Shown here piece after piece: positions 459-62,444 of a DNA stretch of 64,000 nucleotides. The first letter of the stretch is position 1. Every line of letters begins with the position of its first letter. The translations under genes were made by a program, and so were the position numbers. Source of the DNA: Hydrolagus affinis (Eukaryota); contig JAAILG010000019.1 of NCBI GenBank assembly GCA_012026655.1, positions 62,001-126,000 on the forward strand. The letters run 5' to 3'. A model generated the notes under the pieces. It was not told the DNA's origin. It saw nothing but the letters and a program-made list of their open reading frames with translations, and ran no database searches.

Positions 459-2294
459 CAAGGAGTCTCATGTAGTTCATGATTTGGTCTTGGTCTAAAT
501 TGAGGTGTGAGAAGATGTTTTGTCCTTATCTTGACTGAGGATTATCAAAGTGATCAAGTAGCTCCTGTGGTTTTGGTATATATCAAGCTATTTCCTTGAG
601 CAACTCTGAGTAACAGACTAATACAATCCTTAATGGAGCTGTTGATTGTTTTTATACAGTTTCAGTACCACATTCCCTTGGCCACACTTACACTGCACCA
701 GTTGGAAATGTATAGGATCTTGAGAAACCTCAATAAGTCTATTTGGAAATAAATAGGTTTCATTGTGTCTTTGATGATTAAGATTGCCTTTTACATTTTC
801 CTTTATTTTGGGATTATTTTTCTTTATATCCAAATTCAAGGGTTATTTCAGACCTAGACAATGATTAACTCTGAATCTGAAATCAGAACAGTTTACTCGT
901 GCCAAGACTGATAAATGTCACATGGAGCTACAGTTATTTACTCCAACCCTATCAACAGTGGTGAAACCCTGTAAAGAAAGGACATCTGCGGTTTATTCCC
1001 TAAAATTGTAACAGGATACACTGATAGATTTGGCAAGCCCTGAATTCCCTATTCTTCAGGTGCCTAAATATGTACCTATCTGACAAAGAGTCACACTATG
1101 AGTACAGTACAGTAAAGATCTTGTTTGTAGAGGTGTATCAATTCTTGTGGCCTCGTCAGCTTTCCTAATTTATGCCTGTAGGGTCTTCGTGCAAAAAATA
1201 TTGTATTTTGCTTTTTGAGTCTTCAGAGAGATGTGTTATTTTGTATCTCAAGAGTATTATGTTGCTCAGGTTATAGGGAATCTTGTTTTCTATTTGCTAC
1301 TCCTAGTCTACCCTTTCATTCTTCTGTTGAGATGCATATTTTATTTTGAGAAACTCGGGTGAAGGGTCAATCGTAAAATTGCTGCCACAATGTTTCCACA
1401 GGCGAGTGTGCTATCATCTGAGCCAAACTAACACCTGAGGCTCACGATCCCATCTATCCCTTGCCGTCAAAGCATGTTGTATAAAAAATGAAGATTGTGC
1501 AGATTTGTAGAAAATTCCGTCTCAATTTGGAATTGAATAATTTTTAAGAAGAACTTTTCATAGTTTTGCACAATCTTAAATTTAATGATAATATGATCTT
1601 ACAGGCTTTGACAGGATGGAATTTCAGGTTGAGGGATGGGTATGATTAGAAGAACTTCTCTTACTATACACACACGTATACAGTACTGTATATAAAAACA
1701 TTCTTGTAAACAAAAACATTTCTTGCTGTGTTGATAAACTGCTCCGAAAGGAGCTGGATAAATATTTGGTTAAAACAATATTAACAATGATGGGGATAGA
1801 TTGATGAATGAATGTTGTCTGTATAGGTTTTAATTGTAAGAACGGATGAAATTCCTGAAAGTTTTGCTTTGTAAATTGGAGTTGGAGAAATACAGAACTT
1901 TTTTCCAGGAGATAAATTTTTAGAGTCCATGAACTTTTGTATCTATGATAGAAATGGGCTTGATAAGCCAAATTACTTTTCTCATTTGATACTTTATATG
2001 TTCTTATACAATGGCCATTCTTAGACAGCAGCAAATTGTGAGCAAGTTTAATCTTGTACTTACAAATGTCCAGACCAATTTTTGTTCATTATTAGCTTAA
2101 ATATTTGTTCTTTGTCTAAAAGGATTCTTAAATATTGATGTTTTAATTGTCTTATTTGGAACAAATTTAACAACGATTTGACACCTTTATATGGGATACC
2201 GCATATGTACAATAAACTTTAGCACAGTTTATTAGCTCAGTAAAAAAAAATTCTGTTAGTCTAAAATGACACTCTGGAGCTGTGATGGTGAGGG

Positions 2295-2851
2295 GTGTAA
2301 CATTGTCGGAGGTGCTGGCCTTTGGATTAAACATTAAACATTAAACTTTGCCTGCATGTTCAGGTGGACGTTGTTGTTGTCGTCACTACTTGAAAAATGA
2401 AGGTAGTTTCTTCCTTGCAAAGCAAAAGGGACATAGTCTTAAAAATAGAACCAGGCCATTTAAGAGTGGAATAGGAAGTATTTTTTCACTCAAAGGGTGG
2501 TCGAAATGTGGCATTTTCTACCCAAAAGGTCATGGAAGCTGGATCCATCCACACCTTCAAGAGTGAGGTTGATAAATTTTTGGTAGGTTGGGGTATTAAA
2601 TGATACGGGGAGAAAGCGGGAAATTGGAATTAAAAGGATTAGTACGGATACAAATCAGCCACGATCTAATTAAATGGCGGAATGGGCTTGATGGGCTGAA
2701 AGGCCTACTCCTGTTGCTACGTTTCTATGTTCCAGTGTCCGGTCCAGCAGTTCTCCTAAAAATACAGTCACTGAACTGTTCAGTAAATCCTTTGATAATG
2801 TCCTTTAAAAAGGTGAAAGGCACTGCATCAGATGCCAGGATTATTATTATT
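2295..2851 (+). mobile_element. Old Deu-type SINE split by a CR1 insertion (pieces ~2295-2414 and ~2730-2851)
   Basis: cattgtcggaggtgc...ttcaggtggacgtt resembles the Deu core as I recall it; sequence resumes as ccagtgtcc... after the CR1 and ends aaggtgaaaggcact...ggattattattatt. Confidence 0.6.
2415..2729 (+). mobile_element. CR1 LINE 3' end
   Basis: ORF2 C-terminal remnant (GHSLKNRTRPFK) and 3' UTR atcagccacgatct...aatggcgg...ggctgaaaggcctactcctgttgctacgtttctatgtt, similar to 54460-54528. Confidence 0.8.
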
Positions 2852-3889
2852 AAAGATCACAAATCAGCATTTGAAATGTAGGTTAATGTTTGGTTGACCA
2901 GAATTGAAGCGCATATTTATCTATTCAGTTAGAGCAAGAAGAGTTGAATCTTCTGAGTTTTTACATTGTAAATGTTACTGTGACCATTACTGTGGTGGTG
3001 CTTTGCATTGGATTAACAGATGTCAGTATTTATTGACATCATCGAAAAAACGTACTTGCTGAAACCTGCCTTTATAGATTTACACTTGAATTCAAGGATA
3101 CCCTTTTAACTCTTCTGAGCTAGACCCATGTTCTGATGATTCCTGCCTTGTAGCACTCGGCTCAAGTATAAATGCTAAAGCAGTCACTTCTGGACATTTG
3201 ATCCATGAACTACTGGAGGTTAAAGATTTCCATTTTACTTTTCCTCAAATATACCAGTGGTTATTTACCTATTAGTCTCTTACACTGGGACAGTATTTGC
3301 TGCAAAGATGCTGTTGCAGCATAATTGATTGTATTTTCAATACATTTTTACTATCATTTTAAAATTTCTTATGAAAATATCTTATGTATTCTTTATTTAA
3401 ATATGTGAAATGTGTCTTCATCACCTAGAAATAAGTAAGAAAGTATAGTTGGCATTGCTGACATTGGAACGTTATATACAAACCATTGAGAAGGAGAAAG
3501 ATTTTACAGAGAATTACAACAGAATTACACTGTATACAGTTTCCATCCAACTGTTGCCCATTCTAGTTTTCCATTGATGTAAGAGATGACAAAGCATGAA
3601 AAGTCTTATCAACTTGCTTCTCCCATGACCCATGTTGAATATAGTTAGTAAGTAAAATGATCCATGTTCAATTTGCTCTGTCATGGATTCAACCTGATCA
3701 ACTTAATCTCCTGTTAAAAGGTTTCTCCTAAATATCTTCTATCCCTACCTTAACAATTAAATCCAATGAAAACTGGAATAACTGCTTATCCTTGTACCAT
3801 ATATTGCACCTCTATAACTAAAAAAAATCTTGAAATACCCAGTTAAAGGGTAGGGGCCACAAAACAATCTCCCACCATTTGAAAAGAGA

Positions 3890-4470
3890 ATAACAACAAA
3901 ATTATATTTGTAAAGTGCCTTTCATGGTGGGAGGATGTCCCAAGGTGCTGAACAGTTGGGGATAAGGACCTAAGCATGGTAGGGAGGCAGGGGCAGATAA
4001 GGGAGGATAGAGATAGGAGGGTGGCTGAAGACACAGTCGAAAAGGAGGAACTTGAGTCATGTCTTGAAGAAGGGAAGGAGCAAGGCGAAGGGGTTATGGG
4101 ATGGAGTTCCAAAGTGGGGCGCAGAGAGGCAGAAAGTCTGGTTCCTGATGTTAGGGTTGGTTTGGCGGGAGCCACGGAGCAGGATGGAGTTTGCTGAATG
4201 TAAGGAGTGGACAGGTTGATAGAGGGTCGGCAGTTCAAAGAGATGGGGATAAGGAGGTGGAGGGCCTTGAAGGTGAGGATGAGAATTTTGAATTGTATCC
4301 TCTGAGGGGTGAGGAGCCAGTGGAACTGACTGAGGGTGGGGGCGATGGGGTCATGGAGCCTGGTGCGGGAGAGGACATGAGCTGCAGAGTTCTGGTAATC
4401 TGCATCTTGTGGAGGGAAGAGTCAGGAAGGCCAACAAGGAAGTAGTTTCCGTAGTCAAGCCTTTGGGTGA
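3890..4470 (-). mobile_element. L2-clade LINE 3' fragment
   Basis: aacaacaaaattatatttgtaaagtgcctttca tail on the minus strand; body collinear with 9848-10430. Confidence 0.8.
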
Positions 4471-5066: not shown

Positions 5067-5140
5067 GAGTCCTGTAGCTTGGTGGTTAGAGCACTCGCCT
5101 TACAAGCGATAGACCTAGGTTCAATTCCAGGTAGGGTGGC
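5067..5140 (+). mobile_element. Isolated tRNA-like SINE head (Pol III A/B boxes), no body or tail
   Basis: gagtcctgtagcttggtggttagagcactcgccttacaagcgatagacctaggttcaattccaggtagggt matches the heads at 41425 and 54097. Confidence 0.8.
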
Positions 5141-7437: not shown

Positions 7438-7594
7438 TTTTGCCCACAAAACATTCAGTCAATTCACTTTACAATATATTCCATGAAGTGCTTTGAGATG
7501 TCTTCTAGATGTCTCAAAGCGCTTCACAGAATATACTATAAAGTGAATTGACTAAAGGTGGGCAAAACACAGCAGCCAATTGCACACAGCAATT
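7438..7594. repeat. Palindrome made of two young-SINE 3' parts fused tail to tail
   Basis: 47-bp arms 7457-7503 and 7507-7553 (40/47 Watson-Crick complementary), outer arms ttttgcccac/gtgggcaaaa. Confidence 0.85.
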
Positions 7595-9847: not shown

Positions 9848-10695
9848 CAACAACAAGAACAACAACAAAATTACACTTGTATAGCGCCTTTTATATCAGG
9901 AGGAGCTGAACAGTCAATGTTTCAGACCCAAGCTGGGATCGGGGAGGGTAGAGGCAAAAGGGGGGATTTGGGGTGACCGATGGGCCTGTCAAAGAGGAGG
10001 GTCTTGAGGCGGGATTTGAAGGAGGCCAGGGAGGGTACGAGGCACAGAGACCGCAGGATTGAGTTCTAGAGGTTAGGGCCAGAGTGGCTGAAGGCTCGCC
10101 CGCCAATGGTGGGGTGGGTGGGTCAGGGGACATGAAGCAGGCTGGAGCCTGGCTGAGTGGAGGGGGCGGGCATGTTGGTGGGGGTTAGGAGGTCGCAGAG
10201 ATAGGATGGGGCAAGGCCATGGAGGGCTTTGAATGTGAGGAGCAGGGTCTTGAATTGAATCCTCTGGGTGTTGGGGAGCCATGGAGTCGGGCGAGAATGG
10301 CAGAGTTGGAGCGGTAGAGGACACAGGCTGCAGAGTTCTGGATTATTTGCAGCCCATGGAAGAGGAATTGGGAAGGCTGACAAGCAGGGCATTGGCATAG
10401 TTCAACCTGGATGTGATGAAGGCATGAATGAGGGTTTCAGCGGCCTGAACGGTGGGGTAGGGGCGGAATCGGGCAATATTGCGGAGGTGAGGGAAGCCAG
10501 AGAATGTTGACATTCAATTGTAGAAAGTTAACTCTCATGCAGGACTTGATGTCTGACAGGCAGTCTGTCAGGATAGCAGTGGTCCTGGAGACAAAGGTAG
10601 ATGCAGAAAGTTAGAGTTGGGTGTCATCCGCATACATATGGAAGTTGACCCCATGGTCTGCGGATGATGTCGCCAAGGGGGAGCATGTAGATATT
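9848..10695 (-). mobile_element. L2-clade LINE, 5'-truncated, with RT catalytic motif
   Basis: Minus strand near 10614-10643 reads FHMYADDTQL; RIQFKTLLLTFKALHGLAPSYLCDLL is a typical L2 ORF2 C-terminus; (CAA)n tail at 9848. Confidence 0.9.
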
Positions 10696-16169: not shown

Positions 16170-16580
16170 AACAACTTCCTTCTAACTTCCTCCTTGTCCT
16201 CACTTTCAAGGCCGTCAACGGCTTTGCTTCCCCCTATCTCTCTGACTTGCTAACCCCTTATCAACCTGTCCGCTCCCTCCTCTCAGCAGGCTCTAGCCTA
16301 CTCCATATCTCCCGCCTGACCCACCCTATCATTGGCGGCTGGCTTTCAGCTTCTCTGACCCTACTTTTTGATACTCCATCCTACAATCCCTTCGCCTTGC
16401 TTGCTCCCTTGCCTCCTTCAAGACCTTCCTCTTCGATCGTGCTTTCAGCCGCTGTCCTACCTCTCTACCCTCCCTCATCCCAACCCTGCGCCCCCTCCCT
16501 CCATTCTCGGCTCCTGACCCATGACCTTTCAGCGCCTTGGGATGTCCTCCCGACGTCAGAGGCACTCTACAAATAAACCT
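16170..16580 (+). mobile_element. L2-clade LINE 3' fragment, inserted into an older SINE-like repeat
   Basis: LTPYQPVRSLLSAGSSLLHI...GG motif; terminus cagcgccttgggatgtcctcccgacgtcagaggcactctacaaat. Confidence 0.8.
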
Positions 16581-20060: not shown

Positions 20061-20167
20061 AATAATAATAATAATAATCCTTGGATTTGATATTGCACTT
20101 TTCACAACTTCTAGACGTCTCAAAGCCCTTCACAGAACATACTGTAAAGTGAATTGACTGTACATTT
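20061..20167 (-). mobile_element. Young SINE 3' end
   Basis: (AAT)n then ccttggatttgatattgcacttttcac...tctagacgtctcaaagc...gtaaagtgaattgactg. Confidence 0.85.
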
Positions 20168-25383: not shown

Positions 25384-25597
25384 AAACAAAACACAAAATA
25401 CTACAGATGTTAGGAATCTGAAACAAAAACAAAAGTTGCTGGGGAAACTCAGCAGGTCAGGCAGCATCCATGGAGAAAAGAAAAAGAGTCAACGTTTCAG
25501 GTCTACAAACGTAGACCCGAAATGTTGACTCTTTTTCCTTTCTCCATGGATGCTGCCTGACCTGCTGAGTTTCCCCAGCAACTTTTGTTTTTGTTTC
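25384..25597. mobile_element. Penelope-type short retroelement in inverted (palindromic) form
   Basis: 87-bp arms 25420-25506 and 25511-25597 with 3 mismatches and loop aaac; same unit as 33806-33950 and 51774-51912. Confidence 0.85.
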
Positions 25598-26834: not shown

Positions 26835-26938
26835 TAAAATATGCAATCAATTCACTTAACAGTATATTCTGAGATACACTTTGAGATGTCTCGAAGACGT
26901 ACTAAGGCGCTATATCAAATGCAAGGATTATTATTATC
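26835..26938 (+). mobile_element. Young SINE 3' end
   Basis: tcaattcacttaacagtatattctg...ggcgctatatcaaatgcaaggattattatt. Confidence 0.8.
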
Positions 26939-27324
26939 TATTTTTTATGCTCCTCAAGTTCTTACTCAGCAGCAAGATTTTCTAAGTGAGAGAGCAAGCA
27001 ACTTGTTCCCAGGCCTTTTGCCAATATTATTCTGTGCCAGTCACAAGGAAATCTGTTTGAACCGTGGTGGAGAACATGTTCATTGATTTTACTTGGCATA
27101 ATACTTGTAATAAACCTTACAAGATTGCATGTGGAGTGTATGCAAGGGCAATCAGCAACATTTTGAGCAAGGTTGCTTAATTTAAATCTACCCAAACGAC
27201 AAGGAGTTGTTTCTTTTTTGAGACAGAAACCTGTATCGTTTGGCATCAAATCAGCATAGCTGTCAGCGGTTAACAAAGGAAGAGTAAAGTAACACCTTTT
27301 GTGGATTTTCAGGAAGCTGTATGT

Positions 27325-27942
27325 ATGTTCCTCTGCAATATTGCCTGACTCCGCCACTACCTCATCCCCCAGTCCGCTGAAACCCTCATTCATGCCTTCA
27401 TCACATCCTGACTCAACTACGCTAATGCCCTGCAATTCCTCCCTCCATAGACTGCAGATAATCCAGAACTCTGTGGCTCCATCTCCCCCATTCTCGCCCG
27501 ACTCCATTGGCTCTCCATCACCCAGAGGAATCAACTCAAGATTCTGAGCCTCACCTTCAAACCCTTCCATGGCCTTGCCCCACTGCGACCTCCTAACCCC
27601 ATACCAACCTGCCTGCTCCCTCCGCTCAGCAGGCTCTTGTTTCATGTCCCCCGACCCATCCGATCCACTATCTGCGGATGAGCCTTCAGCCTCTCTGCTC
27701 CTAATCTCTGGAATTCCATCCCGCAGTCCCTCCACATCGCCCTCTCCCTGGCCTCCTTCAAGTGCTGCCTCAAGCCCCTCCTCTTCGATGGTCCCATCGG
27801 TTACCCCAAATCCCCTCCTTTCCCTCCACCCTCCCCGTTCCCAACCACAGCTTGGATATGAAACATTGACTGTCCAGCACCTTGAAACATCCTACTGATA
27901 TGAAAGGCGTTATATAAGTGTAATTTTGTTGTTGTTGTTGTT
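27325..27942 (+). mobile_element. L2-clade LINE 3' fragment
   Basis: SSLHRLQIIQNS and CDLLTPYQPACSLRSAG motifs; (TTG)n tail. Confidence 0.88.
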
Positions 27943-31030: not shown

Positions 31031-33805
31031 TTTAACTTACTAGCCTCTTTTTAACTTCCACCCTCCCCCCACGAAGGATAAGGAAAATTGCAATGAATAA
31101 AGCAGCCACAAAAAGCCCCTTGCTATTCATACAGTGATATTTGTAGAATTTTGAGACAATACTAAACTGGTAGTGTATTATTAGACAAAAATATTTTTGT
31201 GAAGGAACGTATGTTATCAGGTTTTTTTTCTTTTGAAGCTTTGATTTATTCCTGAGCTATATTAAAAATATAAGTTTTCTGTAGTTGAGCTTTTCTGAAA
31301 CGGTTACTTCAATCCATTTTTCGATTTATGGATTAAATGTTGTATGAAGCTTTCACCAATGACCCAGTAAAGAATTTGCTTTCATCATTATAGCTTGATC
31401 CATGCGGGTAAGTCCTTCCTGCTGAGTACGATGTGCCCAGCACAGGCAATGGCTGAGGAAGGAAATAACATGAATTTCTTTATTTTGTACCAAGATTGAA
31501 AGGAAGTTGAAGAATATCACAGCTCAGTGTGAGAAGGAAGATTCTGTCTAAATGAGTTGGATAGAGCCTCACTCAAGTAATTGTTCAGCTCCCGGGTGAT
31601 GGGCTTATATGCCATTAATAGTGTCTATCCCACACTGAAGGTGCCAAATATTTAACTGGGGACTGGTACTAATTTCAGAGCTAATATTGAGTCGTTCTAC
31701 ATCAGTGGTTTCAGCAGGTGGTTTGATCTGACAGTGAAAAGAAAAGTGGGAAAAATTATCTTTGTACTGTAGAATTTCTCTGATTGAATTGACTTATTAT
31801 GCTGGCAGAGGTGCTTGGGGAAATATGTCAGCGGTTAGATGAGGGGAAAATAATGATAGTGCCCAGTCCTTTTACAGGCCTTGTCAGTTAATTCACCACA
31901 GCCATACGTTTAAAAGAATGACATGATTGGGCGCAGCATGGCTGTAGATTTTGCAGAGAAACATGGATTTTTGTACTTCACACTTGTAAGCATGCACCAC
32001 TCTATTAATAGTGAGAACAGACTAACTAGTGAATCTTTGGGACATACACTGCAGTAATGAAGGAAAAGTTTAGGGACAATAATGACCTCTCGCCCCAACA
32101 ACCCCCAACAACATACAGAACATTAAATGTGTTAAACAATCAAACATTTACGGCGAGTTGAAATTGAGCGGTAAATACAAATGGAAATTTTACTGAGATT
32201 ATAGGTTGTATTGAAGCGTTTATGTAAAGATAACTTGTTGATGTATTCCCTATTCAGAACATAAAACAGTAGGAAGTTGTATACTTAGGGATTCGTTTAG
32301 GCTTCCTGGCATTGTTTAAAGAGCAATCATTAGTGGCTTAGCTTCAGGGCTGTTGTGAATACAGGAGAATGGCTGTACTGTCTCTGCAAAATAAATGCTT
32401 TATATTTGCTAGAATTCTTTGGTGTACAATGAAAATGACAGTACAGTGATTCCCTGAATATGAACATGATGACCGTAAACACTTGAGAGCTGCAGTGATA
32501 TGGTAACCCGCGGTGCCTCACACAGGAAAGTCCAGCACTACCTGTAGAGAAAAGACTGGTTACATAAGAATAGAACAAGTAAAAGTGGCAGTTCAGAACA
32601 GATTGCAAACAAAAATAACATTAAAATTGCAGGAAGCAAGAATTCCAGCAGATAAGTACCCAGGTAAAAAAAAAAGCTCATTCTAAATCGACATTTCTCC
32701 ACAACCTGGCATTATCATTTTAGTGAAGTCTCGATGCCCGGATTACCTATAGACACAATCCTTTATGCAGCAACATTGGCATTTCAGATTGAAAGCTTCA
32801 CACTGACTTATTTATTCAAGAAAATATTTGCAATCATTAGCCCCATAAATGTAATCTGGAAAAATCCGAGAGAAACAAACCAACAAGTCTCGGATAAGCT
32901 TCGGAAGACTGGGAAAAGGAGAATTATTGTGGGGATAGAAATGAATATAGAAAATTGGATGTGAAAGAGTCTAGGAGGGGTGAAGGGAGATTGTTTGCTG
33001 AATTATTGTGAGAATATAACAAGAGAGCATGATAAAAGCTAAAGCAGGGATATTTGTGCTCTGTGGAAGGGTTAAACGCGATGATACATTTAAAATTAGG
33101 CAGTGAGTTGGCGAAGCTTTTTTTTAATTGAATAGATAGTGAATTTGTAAAATACAAGTAGAATCCTGTTACCAGGAAAAAAAACATTGAAGCAGACAGT
33201 ATTAATAGCTCAAGGAGTAACTCAGAGTGTGTTTCTGGAAATGGGAGGAATTGAAGAATATAGAGTAATGCGAATGTGGATAGAAGAGTTTGAAAATTAA
33301 AGGAGAGCATGTTGACCTTTTCCTATTCGTAAAACAAATCATAAAAGAAGACCGTAGATTCTTAACAGCTACTGTAGAGGTGAAGATACAAAAATCAAAT
33401 CAATTATAAATAGTACATTAAATATACCACACAGGAGTGAATCTAAAAAAACTAGATTCACCATCTTAGATAGAACTACTCCTTTGCCTCACTGTATTTT
33501 GTTTGCTGCCATCTTCTTTCTGTTGAGATAAGAAGTGGCTGTCTATCAATTTTGACAGCTTGACCCTAAAAATGATTTGTACACATTTTATTTATTTTCA
33601 GCATTAAACAATATTGTTGTTACCTTGTGGATCTGCTGATCCAAGGGAAGAATTAACAATACGATGGAATGTGTAATATCTGTCCCCGTATGATCCATGT
33701 TCTCTGACCTCCTCCCTGACTGTTCTTTCTCTGTCCTCTGCCTTGGCTTGTACTCAGCCTCTCAGTGCAGCAACCTTTTACAAAGATGAGCAATGGATCT
33801 GTCTT

Positions 33806-33950
33806 AAACAAAACACAAAATACTACAGATGCTGGAAATCTGAAACAAAAACAGAAGTTGCTGGGAAAACTCAGCAGGTCAGGTAGCATCCATGGAGAAA
33901 GGAAAGTGAGTCAACGTTTCGGGTCCACAACCCTTCATCAGAACCTATCT
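33806..33950 (-). mobile_element. Penelope-type short retroelement, monomer with 12-bp TSD
   Basis: tggatctgtctt at both 33794-33805 and 33951-33962; unit shared with 25384 and 51774. Confidence 0.85.
33910..33944 (-). ncRNA. Minimal type I hammerhead ribozyme motif
   Basis: Minus strand: gtt-CTGATGA-a-gggt(tgtgg)accc-GAAAC-GTT-gac, giving the catalytic core, 4-bp stem II, palindromic ACGT stem III, 3-bp stem I and a GUU site. Confidence 0.7.
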
Positions 33951-34959
33951 TGGATCTGTCTTGTTTGTCTTTGCAACTTGGGAGGATTGGGTAGCATTGT
34001 TGAAAGCATAGTTTAATTATGGTTAAAAAGGATATTTAAGTTAACATCTATGGTGAATATATCAGTTACTGGCTGTACTTAGCTCAGCTATTTTGATTCA
34101 TGAGCCTTAAATACAGTGTTCCTTGGACATAACACCTCTTTACAACATTACTATTTGTTTTGGATTAAAACACCAGTGCTTCATTTTCAATGCATTTCAA
34201 AACGTGTTGCACACAAACCATGGGTCTTCTGTGGAACCCTGATTATGTGCCAATTGCTGAGTTTTACTATTTTGGGGGACAATATAATCTTCTGGTGATA
34301 GATTTATTCCCAGTCCGACGTGAAAATTGTTTTTTATGTGCAGTGGAGGTCATTTTCTTGGCTGCCTTAAATGTTCAATCAGCTTGACTAAATGATATCT
34401 TCATGTTATTTTGTAAATCGTAAAGTCTGGCTGTCTGTGCGTGTTCAAGCTCCAGAAGTGGAGATGTGCCCAAGCTTAGCCTAAAGGTAAAGATAGAAGT
34501 AATTTGCCTGAGCTGGGGAGTTTCCCTCTGGGACTCGGTGAAATTGTATTAGCCAGGCACCTGCATTTCACTGGAGGTTAAGAGTAGCTCTGGGAATGGC
34601 TTCAAAGGACCGTTGGATTTCTTGTGCGATTTACTACACAGTTAGTTAATAAATCTTTGAAAAGCTACTATTGAATTCAATGCATGTACGGATGTTTATT
34701 ATACTTGGGATTTGGTGTTCAGATAAAAGCATTGGTTTGCTTTGTTTGTTGAAAGATCAGCACGTGTTATTTTTGTTAGGAATCATAGGGTAGATTTCCC
34801 TGTTCAAGCAGTGGCGGATTTGACCGCTGTTGTAAGTGTAATTTACCATCCAAAAATATGTCAGAGGTGATACCTAAATCACTGCAATTAGAATCAGTGA
34901 GTGCTGGGCAGGACGTTGTGAATGGATTGATTCAAATTGCTTAAAATCTATGGTACGGA

Positions 34960-41424: not shown

Positions 41425-41582
41425 GGAGTCCTGTAGCTCAGTCATTAGAGCACTCGCCTTGCAAGCAAGAGACCAGGGTTCAATTCCAGCCAGGGCAAAA
41501 CCCTGGGCAAGTTTCCTTACTCCACCCGCCTAATATATCTAGAAGACATTAAAAGCGCTAAATCAAATGCAAGGATTATTTT
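41425..41582 (+). mobile_element. Young tRNA-Ala-derived SINE, internally deleted
   Basis: Head ggagtcctgtagctcag...cttgcaag...ggttcaattcc...caagtttccttactccac joined directly to ctagaagac...aaatgcaaggattatt. Confidence 0.85.
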
Positions 41583-43858: not shown

Positions 43859-44736
43859 GCTCTTGTCCCCTTATATTATAGAAATGTATTCACCAATCCA
43901 TTCATAAGTCTCAGTGGGATGGTTTGTGGCAATTTACTGGTCATCTGAAGAGGATGTTATTGGAGAGAGACACTCCTCCGTGTTTGGGATTGGATAGCAA
44001 ATATTGAATGTGCAATGGGAGCCACAGTCATTGTTTCAAAGATTTATTTGATTGCAATTTTGATCTTAATTTTAAATATAAAATACATTTCAACTCTCTG
44101 GTGTCACACCAGAAGTTATGTAGGCAATGAGTCAATTATGTGCATATAATCTAGAACTAGAGAAACTATTATTATTATTTGTACTTCCAATTGGAATTTA
44201 ACCAATAGTAATTCTTGTTCATTGCAGAAATAATGGCTATAGTTTATGAACTGTACACAGTGTTACACTATTGTCCCTATCTATTTAAAGATCATCTCTT
44301 ATGCAGAAATAGACATTCAATTGATAAAGCATTATTTGAGGTTAGCAGATACTATTTTGTTCGGGTTTACATACAGTATTTTGATAAAAGATGCCATTTG
44401 AAAAAATTGTAATGGTTTGGGGTCTTTGCCTGAAATAACCACTTCAGGTTTTGCCCCAGTATTTTATTTGAAACCCTTGTCTATATGTTGTGATAAATAA
44501 TAGTATACACTACTGTATTTGAATTGCAAATTCGGATAAAGAGCAGATAGAGCCCTAAAATGGTATTGCATTTCTCGGTCTATTTTCAACTGCTGTAATG
44601 TTATGAAAAACATGCAGAGGATCAGCGGAGCAAATGTTTATTGTTCCACTCTATAATCCACCATTCTTGACACATGCATTCATGGTAAGCTATTCTAACT
44701 AAAATCTATTTTATAGTTCTCTTAGAATGTTGGATT

Positions 44737-44891
44737 ATTCAATTCACTTTACAGTATATTCTGTGAAGCGCTTTGAGACGGCTTGAAGTTGTGAAAAGCA
44801 CTATATCAAAGGCAAGGATTATCAATCAAATCAATCAAAACTTACATTTATATAGCGCCTTTCACGTCGAGAGGACGTCCCATTATTATTA
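44737..44891 (+). mobile_element. Young SINE 3' end with an inverted L2-type tip (44821-44881) inside its (ATT)n tail
   Basis: ...ggcaaggatt|atcaatcaaatcaatcaaaacttacatttatatagcgcctttcacgtcgagaggacgtccc|attattatt. Confidence 0.8.
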
Positions 44892-49652: not shown

Positions 49653-49897
49653 TTTACAAGCCTTGCGAAAGGAAAAGTCTCGAGATGCTGCTCGATCTCG
49701 CCGGGGAAAGGAAAACTTTGAATTTTATGAATTGGCAAAATTGCTCCCCCTCCCAGCAGCCATCACAAGTCAGTTAGACAAGGCATCAATCATCCGACTC
49801 ACCATTAGTTACCTGAAAATGAGGGATTTTGCCAACCTAGGTGACCCTCCCTGGAACTTGAGGATGGAAGGACCCCCACCGAATATTTCTGTGAAAG
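49653..49897 (+). CDS. NPAS3: Internal coding exon of neuronal PAS domain protein 3 (bHLH domain), 245 bp, phase 2 to phase 1
   Basis: [81 protein letters not shown], nearly identical to vertebrate NPAS3 as recalled; bounded by cctcag| and |gtaaga. The ORF-track extension after VK is intron read-through. Confidence 0.95.
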
Positions 49898-51773: not shown

Positions 51774-51912
51774 CAACAAAAATGCAAAATACTGCAGATG
51801 CTGGAAGTCTGAAACAAAAGCAGAAATCGTTGGGAACACTCAGCAGGTCAGGTAGCATCTATGGAGAAAGGAAAGTTAGTCAATGTTTCGGGTCCATGAC
51901 CCTTCGTAAGAA
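51774..51912 (-). mobile_element. Penelope-type short retroelement, monomer with degenerate hammerhead
   Basis: Same unit as 33806; tatgctc at both 51767-51773 and 51913-51919; minus-strand core reads CTTACGA...GAAACATT. Confidence 0.82.
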
Positions 51913-53037: not shown

Positions 53038-54528
53038 GGATTTTCAGAAAACATTTGACAAAATGCCACATAAAAGGCTGTTATATAAGATTACTGCCCA
53101 TGGAAGTAAAGGTAATATAGCATGGATTGGAGAGTGGCTATCAGGGAGGAAACAGAGAGTAGGGATAAACGGGTCCTTCTCAGATTGGCAGGATGTGACT
53201 AGTAGAGTGCCACTAGGATCAGTGCTTGGGCCTCAACTATTTACAGTCTATATTAATGATTTAGATGAGTAAATAGAGTTTAACATATCTAAATTTGTGG
53301 ATGATGCAAAGCTAGGTGGGAGAGTAAGCTGTGAGGATGACACAAGAAGAATTAAAAGGGATATAGACAGGCTAGGTAAGTGGGCAAGTAGGTGGCAGAT
53401 GGAGTATAAGTGTGAAGGGGAAGTGTGAAGTTATTCACTTAGGTAGTAAAAATAGAAAAGCTGATTATTTTCTAGAGGGGGAGAGACTAGGTAGTGTTTA
53501 TGTTCAGAGGGATTTGGGTGTCCTTGTGCACTAGTCACAAAAAGATAGTATGCAGATGCAACAAACAACAAAATTACATTTATAGAGCAACTCGGAAGAC
53601 TAATGGCATGTTGTGGTTCATTGCAAAAGGGTTAGAGTACAAGAGTAATGAAATCTTGTTGCAACTGCGTAGGGCCTTGGTGAGACCACACCTAGAATAT
53701 TGTGCCAGTTTTGGTCTCCTTATTTAAGAAAGGACATACTCACCTTAGAGGGCTGCAACATAGATTGGTAGGTTGGTTCCTGGAATGAGGGGGTTGACTC
53801 ATGAGGATAGGTTGAGAAAACTAGGTCTATATTCTCTAAAATGTAGAAGAATTAGAGGTGATCTTATTGAAACCTATAAGATTCTTAAGGGGCTTGACAG
53901 AGTAGACAGTGTGAGACTGTTTCTCCTGGTTGGAGAATCTAAAACTACGGGTCACAGTCTCAAAATTAAGGGTCAGCCTTTTTGAACAGAGTTGAGGAAA
54001 CATTTCTTCACTCAGAGGATGAATTTATGGAATTCTGTACCCCAGAAGGTTGTGGATACTCAATCCTTGAACATATTCAAGACTAAGATTGATTGTGGAG
54101 TTCTGTAACTCAGTGGGTAGAGCACACGCCTTGCAAGCAAGGGATGTGGGTTTGATTCCTGACAGGGTGAATCCTTGGATAAGTTTCCTTACTCCACGTG
54201 CCTTATAATAATCCCTCAAAAAAAAAATTGGTCATTTCAATCCACAACTGTTTGTGGGACACTGCTATGCGTGATTGGCTGCTGCGTTTCACCTACAAAT
54301 ATAGTCAATTCACTGTACAGTATATTCTGTGAAGCGCTTTGAGATGTCTAGAAGACGTGAAAAATGCTATATCAAATGCAAGGATTATTATAGATTTCTA
54401 AAGTATAGAGGGATTAAAGGATATGGGGATAGGGCAGGTAAATGGAATCAAATTAGAAGATCAGCCATGATCTTATTAAATGGCTCGAAGGGTCGAAAGG
54501 CCTATTTCTGCTATTATGTTCTTATGTA
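53038..54528 (+). mobile_element. CR1 LINE, 5'-truncated, ~1.2 kb plus nested inserts
   Basis: [68 protein letters not shown]; CR1 3' UTR; stops and frameshifts. Confidence 0.93.
54097..54389 (+). mobile_element. Apparently full-length young tRNA-Ala-derived SINE (~293 bp) nested in the CR1
   Basis: tRNA head, Deu-like ctgtttgtgggacactgct...ttggctgctgcgtttc, L2-like tail and (ATT)n; CR1 reads gattgat|...|agattt across it. Confidence 0.9.
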
Positions 54529-54787: not shown

Positions 54788-55005
54788 ATCCCTCAAAAAG
54801 AAGTGTACAGAATAATGTACTTTTTAAAAACAATAGTAAATTGGTCACTTCAATCCACGACTGTTTGAACACTGTTGTGCTCAATTGCCTGTTGAGTTTC
54901 GCCCACAAATGTATAGTTAATTCATTTTACAGCATATTCTGTGAAGTGCCTTGAGACTTCTAGAAGACCTGAAAAGTGCTATATCAAATGCAAGGATTAT
55001 TATTC
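54788..55005 (+). mobile_element. Young SINE, 3' two-thirds
   Basis: atccctcaaaaa...aaattggtcacttcaatccac...tatcaaatgcaaggattattatt. Confidence 0.85.
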
Positions 55006-55221
55006 ATTATAACTAACTGAAACTGTAGCACCTATCCTCTCCTGCACTAGACTTTGCATACCTGTCACCCCACCACCCCCCCCCGCCCCCTCCCCACCAC
55101 CCCTGGTCTCCGCTGGCTCCTGGGCATTCCAGTGACATTAAAATCCTTATAGATTAGAGAAGCACAGAGTTTGCTAGACAGTGCTACATGGCAAGGTACA
55201 CCATTTTAGCTGGTTAAACTT

Positions 55222-55920
55222 AACAACACAAAATTACATTGTATAGCGCCTTTCACATCAGGAGGAAGGACGTCCCAAGGCACTGGACAGTCAGTGTTTC
55301 AAACCTGAGCAGGGGTCACAATCGGGGAGGGTGGAGGGAAGTGAGAGGAAGGGGGTGGGGTTACCGAAGGCACGGTCGAAGAAGAGAAGTGGGACTTGAA
55401 GGAGACTATGGAGGTGCCGATGTGGAGGGATTGCAAGATGGAATTCTAATCGTTGGGGATAGAATGGCTGAAGCCTCACCACCAATGGTGGGGTGAGTGG
55501 GTTGGGGAATATGGAACAGGCCAGAGCCCATTGAGTGAAGGAAGCGATCAGGTTGGTAGGAGGTTAGGAGGTCACAGATGTCAGGTCGGGAAAGGCCATG
55601 GAGAGCTTTAAAGGTGAGGACCAGGATCTTGAATTGAATCCTCTGCATCATGGGAAGCCAGTGGAGTCGGGTGAAAATGGGGGTGATAGGGTAATGGAGT
55701 CTGGTGCAGGAGAGGACACTGGCTGCAGAGTTCTGGATGATCTGCAGCCTATGGAGGGAAAAATTGTGTAGGCCAACAAGCAAGGCAGTGGCATAGTTAA
55801 GCCTAAACTTGATGAAGGCATGAATGAGAGTTTCACTTGCCTCAGCAGGTAAGGTAGCGGTGGAGTCGAACAATGTTGTGGAGGTGAGGGAAGGCAGAGT
55901 GGGTCATGGCATGGATATTC
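55222..55920 (-). mobile_element. L2-clade LINE 3' fragment
   Basis: ORF 55406-55873: ETLIHAFI..RLNY..LHRLQIIQNSAA..PITP..LHWLP..RIQFKILVLTFKALHG; (CAA) tail. Confidence 0.92.
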
Positions 55921-60030: not shown

Positions 60031-62444
60031 GAGGCTCATTCAAGTGATTAATATATATCAAAACCCAGCAAGAATCCCAAGATGGACCTGTGAAGTATTT
60101 TGTTCATAACCTATTTCCAGGCAGAAATATTCCTTTTTATCACTACTTTCAGTTTCTTGGTTTTAGGCTCATTGCATATCCTGTTTCATGCTTTATGCAA
60201 TTCTTCTCACCTTACCTTAATCATTCACGTGAAACCTAGTTAAACCCTTTCTGTAAAATCCAAAATATCTTTTGACTGTATTACACCTGTTCAACATTTT
60301 AATAATGTATTTGAAATGCATCAGCAGGTTACTTAAGCATGACCTCCCTTGCTGAATCAAACCCGCCAACCTTTGTATATGATCACCTTTTTAAACTTGA
60401 TAATAACTTGAACTGTCTTTATATTTGCATGTCTGGTGCACTTGTGTATCATTGTATGCTATACTGGCCTGTTATTGATAAGTCTTCATGTATAATGCAT
60501 TTTCTCACTGGAATGGATAGAAATTGAAACCAGTTGTAAACGTTCATAGTGGTTGCGTTGAGAATCATTGACCTAAAATTAATTTGCATAGTTCTGCATA
60601 TAGCATTTGGCTTTTTAGATGATCTTACTGGATAGGGACAGCAGAAATGAAGTTGGAAGAAACTCTTTGTTTACTCTTGTGCACATTGCCTGGCAATCTG
60701 GACCTTATCACTTCTGACATTCTCCATTCCCACTCCTGCTATTAATCTTCACCCAACAACTCAGTGAGCTGTCTCTCTTTTTATGGTATATGACTGTATG
60801 CCTTAAGAGTAAATTAAACCCTTTCCAAACATATCCCAGTTGCTTTTCACCAATCTGCTTCCTCTGCTCTCGTATTGCTTAGTGAAATGTCAGTCAGCTC
60901 TCTCCATAAATATATTAAAATTCTGGAGCTGACTGAAATCTTGATCAAGGAAACTCATTCTTTCCTTACATCCTATAACACATTCCATTAAGTTCCTTAC
61001 CCAAATTCCCATTTCCATATCTAGCCTTCTAGGAACTCTAGCAATTCTGCCTTTACCATTCCATTACTCTCTCCTTCAGAATTCTCATTATCTTTTCTGG
61101 CTTTTTGTAACCCTCTTGTCTGTTCTCACTCAGCCTATGCAACTTCTGCAATTTCTTTTTCTGTTTCCTCGCCCACAACATAAGCTTACTAACCCTTGTG
61201 CTCGCTATCATGTGCAACCTTTCCTTCCTCCTTTTACTCCTGAGAAAAGCTACCACTTGATTATTTGTCAGGCTGTAGCCCTCCATTCACCTTGACATTG
61301 GCCTCTCAGTCATTCTTCTTCAAATAGCTTTACCTCCATCAAATCTCAAATGGTCTATCTTGTGCATTAAGCACTGCCATGGATTACATGCCAACGGCTG
61401 TTGGCTTCACTATCTCAAGAAATATTGCCTCTGTCTCTCTGATGCCAAATTTTCCCATTACTTCGATATCATTCAAGAAGATGAGGAGAATTCCTATGTA
61501 GAGTGCATGAAAAGCATCCCAGCCAAAACTGTTCAATCAGGTGAGAGCGTATATTCATGAATTTACGGCAGTTAGTTATCTTCAAGGTAGTATACTGAGA
61601 CTTGGGTCTTCATTTAGCTATCAAAATTAAAGTTGAAGAAATTTGAACAGGAAGATAATTTGTCTTATTTGTAGAGAAAGAAAAACTAATGTGTCAAATG
61701 TTGGCAGGTGTATATTAATGTACCTTCTGTGTCTGGAAAAAATATTAGTGAGTTATTTTTTCTGTGAGAGTTTATTGCAGTACAGTGTAAAAATTAGATC
61801 CTGTGTTTGCACTATTTTAAATATTTACTGACAAAGATCAAAGGTATACATGTTGAAACCGATTAATATTTGTTGTTCATTGCCACTTTATGTTCATTTG
61901 TCTCCAGCAAGTAGCAAGCAAAGGTGCTAAAGAACCATTCCCTTTTCACTACTTTATCCATAAGTGGTGAGAAATGAAGGTCATATGAGATAGTACTCGT
62001 TTTATGGTTGTGCAGTGGGATTACTCGGATGATGTCTATGATGTAAAATAAAACCTGGATTGATAGGTATGGAGCAGTCCTCTGGCTCCTGATAATTGTT
62101 CAGTATGCTGAGCAGGCTACACCTGGGTGTTGGAAATGCACTTTTTACTTGAGCAAAAATGAGCCTGGAATGTCACAGATTACTACATGTAAATGAATTA
62201 TTATTTAGGCAGCTGTAGATGGAGCTTGCTCATTCCTGAACCATGTTGGAACAAAAATTGAATGACAGTAAGCAAAATGATAGTAATTATAAAACTAATT
62301 ACAAAAGTCTGACGATGCCCACAGGTTTTGTAAAACTAAAATTAGTCAGGAAATTGCCTTAATTTCTTGCAAACTGCTGCTTACTCCCCCAGACAGTTTT
62401 GTTCTCTCTTTTTCTCTCTTACCTCACATCCCCACACCCCCCAT

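Follow-up and report, generated by a model that had tools for sequence, protein, structure and literature searches.

A short repeat unit in the genome of the chimaera Hydrolagus affinis, at positions 33806-33944 of the stretch analysed here (64,000 nt of contig JAAILG010000019.1, forward-strand positions 62,001 to 126,000, hereafter the window), is likely the solo pseudo-long terminal repeat (pLTR) of a Penelope-like retrotransposon and carries a complete minimal type I hammerhead ribozyme motif at its 5' end. We consider an origin from a Penelope-like element (PLE) quite probable. The unit lies on the minus strand, where the hammerhead forms the 5' end and the 3' end is T-rich. A preliminary description had proposed a non-autonomous, Penelope-derived family mobilised as a discrete unit; the PLE-type hammerhead, the target duplications and other PLE hallmarks speak for that derivation, whereas no parent encoding a reverse transcriptase (RT) and a GIY-YIG endonuclease could be linked to the unit, so that a non-autonomous family and a solo, 5'-truncated pLTR of an autonomous PLE are indistinguishable here. 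The features of the locus are as follows.

33794-33805, strand not applicable: left copy of a 12-bp target-site duplication, exact match.
33806-33944, minus strand: repeat unit, likely a solo PLE pLTR; read depth rises and falls at its borders in 4/4 runs, and further copies lie in the window.
33810-33843, minus strand: optional extension of the 3' end by 34 nt, corresponding to the PLE "tail", delimited by piles of loose ends and by a tail-less arm in the window.
33909-33945, minus strand: minimal type I hammerhead motif, from sequence, descriptor and folding; activity predicted only.
33945-33950, strand not applicable: six extra bases at the 5' junction, differing from the family majority in the loose-end letters.
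33951-33962, strand not applicable: right copy of the 12-bp target-site duplication, exact match.

The unit and its copies in the window

The flanking direct repeat, reported already in the preliminary description, is exact, occurs only twice in the 64-kb window and brackets a 145-nt insert (33806-33950); a flanking exact repeat of at least 12 bp was found in 0 of 9,034 length-matched control intervals. Family similarity stops at 33944, and 33945-33950 are extra bases of this copy. Since a contig of organism A, one of three organisms whose public DNA runs were mapped (see below), spans the right junction of the 33806 copy, the insertion is present in that organism too. Four pieces of the family, representing three insertions, lie in the window, those beyond the 33806 copy being the following.

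25384-25508, minus strand: second copy, left arm of a head-to-head inverted pair, 91% over 125 nt.
25511-25597, plus strand: inverted arm of the same insertion, tail-less and 5'-truncated, 92% over 87 nt.
51779-51912, minus strand: third insertion, full unit length, 88% over 134 nt, with a 7-bp flanking repeat.

The left arm of the inverted pair retains the tail and is 5'-truncated in stem II/loop II of the hammerhead, and the right arm, which is cut off in stem II/loop II as well, ends at the position matching 33842. The two arms differ from each other at 3 of 87 positions and have six differences from the 33806 copy in common; no clear target duplication was found at this pair. The pair folds back at hammerhead loop II, with a short hairpin of perfect pairing at about 25500-25517. 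The 51779 copy has its own, independent end at the base that corresponds to 33943, and its hammerhead core has decayed, with changes in C3-A6 and at 16.2; a 7-bp flanking repeat such as its own was seen in 77 of 9,034 control intervals. Target duplications, a PLE hallmark, are thus represented by the 12 bp of the 33806 copy and the 7 bp of the 51779 copy. Tandem arrays of the unit are absent from the window, where all three insertions (3/3) are monomeric or inverted.

A minimal hammerhead motif on the minus strand

Structurally, the complete core claimed in the preliminary description is present on the minus strand, with C3-A9 at 33941-33935, an extra A at 33934, GAAA (G12-A15.1) at 33920-33917, C15.2/G16.2 at 33916/33915, U16.1 at 33914 and H17 (a U) at 33913. 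Given H17 at 33913, the predicted scissile bond is 33913/33912, in agreement with the cleavage site proposed earlier, and, also as described before, there is no stem III, its place being taken by the palindromic C33916-G33915 (ACGU). Other details needed redrawing: stem II is present but is better described as 5 bp with a 3-nt loop (33933-33929/33925-33921, closing pair U.G), stem I is present but has four pairs, two of them wobbles (33945-33942/33912-33909), and the extra A and the GUU site, both confirmed, had been taken as unusual but are standard for the minimal class. The G10.1-C11.1 pair required of minimal hammerhead ribozymes (min-HHRs) is G33933-C33921 here, and the lengths of stem I (4 bp) and stem II (5 bp) fall within the ranges for these motifs (2-5 bp and at least 4 bp, respectively).

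A hammerhead descriptor modelled on Cervera 2014, applied to both strands of the 64 kb, matched at this site alone and in 0 of 300 Markov-simulated 64-kb windows. Rfam's hammerhead covariance models, a kind of check suggested in the preliminary description, gave no hammerhead match at the gathering score, nor up to E=10. Folded in isolation, the 39-nt motif forms both stems with pair probabilities of 0.62-0.99; inside the whole unit these drop to about 0.05-0.10, and the fold of the unit is not more stable than that of shuffled sequences (z = +1.2). Sequence variation among copies was read from an unphased pile-up (39 of 100 variant rows listed), with a variant counted as common at 13% or more in both large DNA runs. 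Common variants fell on 0 of 16 constrained hammerhead positions, on 1 of the 15 remaining stem positions (in the closing pair of stem II, U.G to C-G, 42-47%), on 2 of 5 free positions (N7, 59-76%, and loop II, 32-45%) and on 11 of 99 positions of the unit body, a pattern that fits a hammerhead, as weak evidence.

Copy number and ends of the family in public sequencing runs

Four of 21 public runs were mapped to the locus, namely three DNA runs from organisms A, B and C, which need not be the species of the window, and one poly(A) single-cell RNA run. Contigs matching the unit, which do not equal copies, numbered 27,151 in organism A, 3,227 in B and 24,201 in C, with the flanks at single-copy depth; the family is clearly very large and dispersed. 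In the RNA run, 7,660 of 13.9 million reads belonged to the family, and because these lay on both strands with none on the flanks of the 33806 copy, the run is silent on that copy.

At the 3' end, loose ends accumulate at 33808-33810 and at 33843/33844 in all four runs (among 24 of 844 rows listed, as for all loose ends here), and beyond both piles the three DNA runs continue into unrelated AT-rich sequence; rows at 33816 and 33905 resemble sequence variants rather than ends. Opposite-strand joints make up 12 of the 15 joints listed (of 95), 8 of them with one end at 33935-33945. On the 5' side the largest pile is at 33944, again in 4/4 runs, and because the 30 letters past it agree only at 0.36-0.48 among contigs and reads, most copies appear to run on into unrelated DNA from there. 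Many copies have their end no more than a few bases away from the 5' strand of stem I, and they include both sides of the scissile bond.

Two further observations concern these ends. Just 5' of stem I (33944-33947), the family majority reads CAG on the hammerhead strand in 4/4 runs; since an intron of Drosophila virilis Penelope extends to the 5' end of helix I (PMC4209133), this CAG may be a splice acceptor in the parent. Separately, 565 RNA reads (run X18) that end before 33844 have one flank in common (agreement 0.66), with a short inverted repeat, which is probably a single highly expressed tail-less copy in organism C, and possibly a piece of the parent element.

Comparison with known hammerhead-bearing elements

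The closest comparison is with the min-HHRs of metazoan PLE pLTRs, characterised in PMC4209133 by an extra base after A9, a G10.1-C11.1 pair and a palindromic 15.2-16.2. The unit has all of these together with the CUGANGA core, the extra base lying before 10.1, and it resembles them in lacking stem III, in its 4-bp stem I and in its occurrence as thousands of mostly single, dispersed copies. That source counts about 4,000 min-HHRs in the coelacanth and 9,000 in Xenopus, and explains many single copies as truncated PLEs; C-G-U-U is found in 15 of the 56 motifs of its supplementary Fig. S3 (counted by eye). The unit differs in its 5-bp stem II with a triloop and in being without a linked parent open reading frame (ORF), and no cartilaginous fish is represented among those 56 motifs. 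With the unit, the class, known since 2014, gains a cartilaginous-fish family. We did not find the family described in the literature on Penelope-like elements and hammerheads of cartilaginous fishes, and Repbase, Dfam or retrozyme supplements may list it.

Anolis Poseidon (PAc; PMC11167929) and Drosophila Penelope (PMC2377424) are similar to the unit in that the hammerhead precedes two 3' ends by about 70-105 nt, in having a tail of ~34 nt, in AT-rich flanks and in that inserted copies keep the hammerhead uncut. The 34-nt difference between the two 3' ends of the unit equals the repeat of D. virilis Penelope, given as 34-37 bp (PMC2377424), and PLE tails are put at 30-40 bp in PMC8557442. For Poseidon, uncut RNA served as insertion template in vitro, where the tail also marks two sites inside the RNA at which reverse transcription starts (PMC11167929). 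Inverted, 5'-truncated copies, such as the arm at 25511-25597, are typical of PLEs (PMC3846280), lying at the 5' end according to PMC8557442, and target duplications of rotifer PLEs measure 8-10 bp (PMC3846280).

A search with the hammerhead pattern gave 0 matches in viral contigs and a single match in metagenome contigs (locus L001), which contains the following features.

L001, 548-576, minus strand: near-identical minimal hammerhead, from the pattern match.
L001, about 791-2810, plus strand: Neptune-like RT ORF in decayed and truncated form, with relatives that have RT, a Cys-rich linker and GIY-YIG.

The L001 hammerhead is inverted and lies about 215 nt upstream of the decayed RT ORF. Among named proteins, those of teleosts are closest to this ORF; L001 itself is eukaryotic DNA in a metagenome collection. 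In this one case the hammerhead form goes with a PLE. The label Neptune is putative, as it follows from the Cys-rich linker compared with PMC8557442 and not from a tree. With these Neptune-type elements (the relatives of L001, in fish and amphibians) the unit has in common a near-identical core, the base of stem II and the CGUU site, inverted in their case beside the RT ORF, whereas L001 shows no similarity to the unit outside the hammerhead. With a pattern of the family body there were 0 matches in viral contigs and 0 in metagenome contigs, and three prokaryote-genome matches were set aside as 21-nt chance matches without further similarity.

Practically, we suggest that the unit be annotated as a PLE pLTR repeat and not as a functional host ribozyme. 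Its useful feature is scale combined with uniformity: the hammerhead is retained complete in the copies, many of which end at its 5' edge. This pattern agrees with the uncut-template result obtained in vitro (PMC11167929), and the family offers a large natural data set on what determines the 5' ends of PLEs.

Proposed mode of insertion

Mechanistically, the unit was likely inserted by a PLE RT/GIY-YIG protein from uncleaved RNA. Following the Poseidon model (PMC11167929), the protein would nick AT-rich DNA and prime reverse transcription inside its RNA at either of two sites ~34 nt apart, so that some copies would have the tail and others would lack it; the pair of 3' ends is itself observed. 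Copies retain the whole hammerhead, with both sides of the scissile bond, and the template RNA was therefore likely not cut at this ribozyme. Synthesis would end near the 5' strand of stem I in many copies and earlier in others, some of which bear an inverted, truncated arm, and the target would be duplicated. Monomers of min-HHRs did not cleave, and dimers cleaved weakly, in PMC4209133; in line with that source, cleavage by a hammerhead without stem III would require a dimer formed through the ACGU palindrome, or else the aid of a protein, which would place the work of the motif in the source element. After insertion, copies decay at CpG sites, and those of the hammerhead core are observed to have decayed at 10-12% across copies, as expected if inserted copies are neutral.

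Weighing the Penelope-like origin and its alternatives

Several results count against a PLE origin as set out above. The RT plus GIY-YIG parent anticipated in the preliminary description was not found in the window, where tblastn with 93 PLE proteins gave 0 matches at E 0.05; the reading frames of the unit, compared with the same 93 proteins, reached a best E of 0.057, which was rejected as unconvincing, and an open plus-strand frame compared with longer proteins gave no protein match (0/5 candidates). In Poseidon and Penelope the ORF begins in the pLTR (PMC11167929; PMC2377424), whereas no long ORF starts in the unit, which has a frame of 19 codons with an AUG that about 60% of copies have lost; an ORF of its own was rejected. 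The L001 locus has only the hammerhead in common with the unit, is a single locus, and was retrieved with a pattern that demands a hammerhead. The duplication of the target is deduced from the flanking repeats, as no empty site was seen, none being present among the 15 joints listed, and the 33944 pile alone proves little because the query copy itself ends there. Conservation of the core is weak evidence too, since 0 of 16 is not unusual at the rate of the unit body (~0.15, simple binomial); the contrast of core with free positions gives p = 0.048, post hoc, and C3-A6 are no more than 7 nt from where the alignment stops, a zone in which mismatches are clipped off. As for the stem II covariation that the preliminary description had looked to, the switch at the closing pair is one-sided, and no two-sided compensatory change was seen in the variant pile-up.

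The alternative that fares best is a variant of PLE origin with a different template, namely a true non-autonomous parasite of PLEs resembling a short interspersed nuclear element (SINE), whose short masters would be transcribed alone or by read-through and mobilised in trans as ~140-nt units. We hold this to be possible, if on the whole improbable. Both uninverted window copies end at 33943/33944 with target duplications of their own, the letters past 33944 are mostly unrelated DNA, the roughly 11 common variants suggest several source lineages, and pLTRs alone can be mobilised in trans (PMC3846280). The same pattern would, however, arise if the RNA of a full-length element starts at stem I, is spliced there or stalls the RT there, and Rfam, which did find tRNA-like heads elsewhere in the window, showed neither such a head nor another promoter in the unit. 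Speculatively, the 5' border of such a parasite, with its tens of thousands of chimaera copies, might be determined by stem I's first strand rather than by the cleavage site. This we think unlikely; if true, stem I would act as an RNA start, a splice acceptor or an RT stop that fixes the 5' border, the minimal hammerhead would be a structural signal for mobilisation and not a nuclease, and the role of the PLE hammerhead could be tested from sequence, on the thousands of junctions that a single genome would provide.

Much less probable is a monomer shed from a tandem non-LTR retrozyme (one lacking long terminal repeats) that replicates via self-cleaved circular RNA. Animal non-LTR retrozymes (PMC7229834; bioRxiv 10.64898/2026.07.22.740005) are, like the unit, short non-coding hammerhead repeats related to PLE pLTRs, and monomers are common among them; the latter source reports them, as tandem retrozymes derived from pLTRs that leave monomers, in one chondrichthyan genome, and in our data one contig joins 33912 back to 33804. 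They are nevertheless defined by tandem arrays and circular RNA, and the chondrichthyan consensus averages 363 bp, whereas the unit is ~140 nt long, monomeric or inverted, has a PLE tail and forms no head-to-tail array within the window. Neither end of the unit coincides with the cleavage site, and its 5' end holds the complete hammerhead, which is not divided between the two ends. Retrozymes mostly carry canonical hammerheads (PMC7229834), and the one RNA run has no pile of RNA ends at 33912/33913, a weak test in a poly(A) single-cell library.

Chance resemblance of the motif in an unrelated SINE or miniature inverted-repeat transposable element is very improbable: it would account for the missing Rfam hammerhead match, for a fold no more stable than shuffles and for an activity that is predicted only, and it is opposed by the 0 of 300 simulated windows with a descriptor match and by motif, tail and inverted arms all pointing to PLEs.

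Genomic context

The window contains one recognisable host exon.

49657-49896, plus strand: NPAS3 bHLH exon, 69/70 residues matching a solved NPAS3 chain.

Over 79 residues, and among the best 120 of 799 matches, this exon is identical (100%) to Callorhinchus milii, with 97-99% identity in sharks and rays, 99% in a single frog and 97% in most amniotes. This pattern makes a cartilaginous fish the probable host, likely a chimaera, the finer assignment depending on a single residue. The 33806 unit lies upstream of it with the hammerhead antisense to the gene, and, as no other NPAS3 exon, upstream ones included, was found in the 64-kb window, the unit is likely in a long NPAS3 intron. Being a single copy and antisense to this likely intron, it would not cut the host pre-mRNA, and the 33806 copy is predicted to be probably inert. 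Co-option of this copy to process the NPAS3 or an antisense transcript is hard to credit: its core is intact and the insertion is also present in organism A, but it is antisense to NPAS3 and has no dimer partner, most family copies likewise keep most of the core, and within the unit's ensemble of folds the hammerhead is a rare one.

Other repeats in the window are of different kinds. Pieces of one 5'-truncated repeat with decayed coding-like frames lie at 9852-10502, 27330-27942, 55222-55899, 3889-4442 and 16197-16575; they gave no Pfam match, and we take them to resemble the 3' end of L2/CR1-type long interspersed nuclear elements. A second family, a repeat of ~110 nt with tRNA-like heads (Rfam tRNA, 42 and 36.5 bits), is found at 5068-5139, 41427-41535 and 54096-54391, with related pieces at 1-110, 7439-7591, 20061-20167, 26837-26945, 44736-44828 and 54838-55027, and is probably a tRNA-derived SINE.

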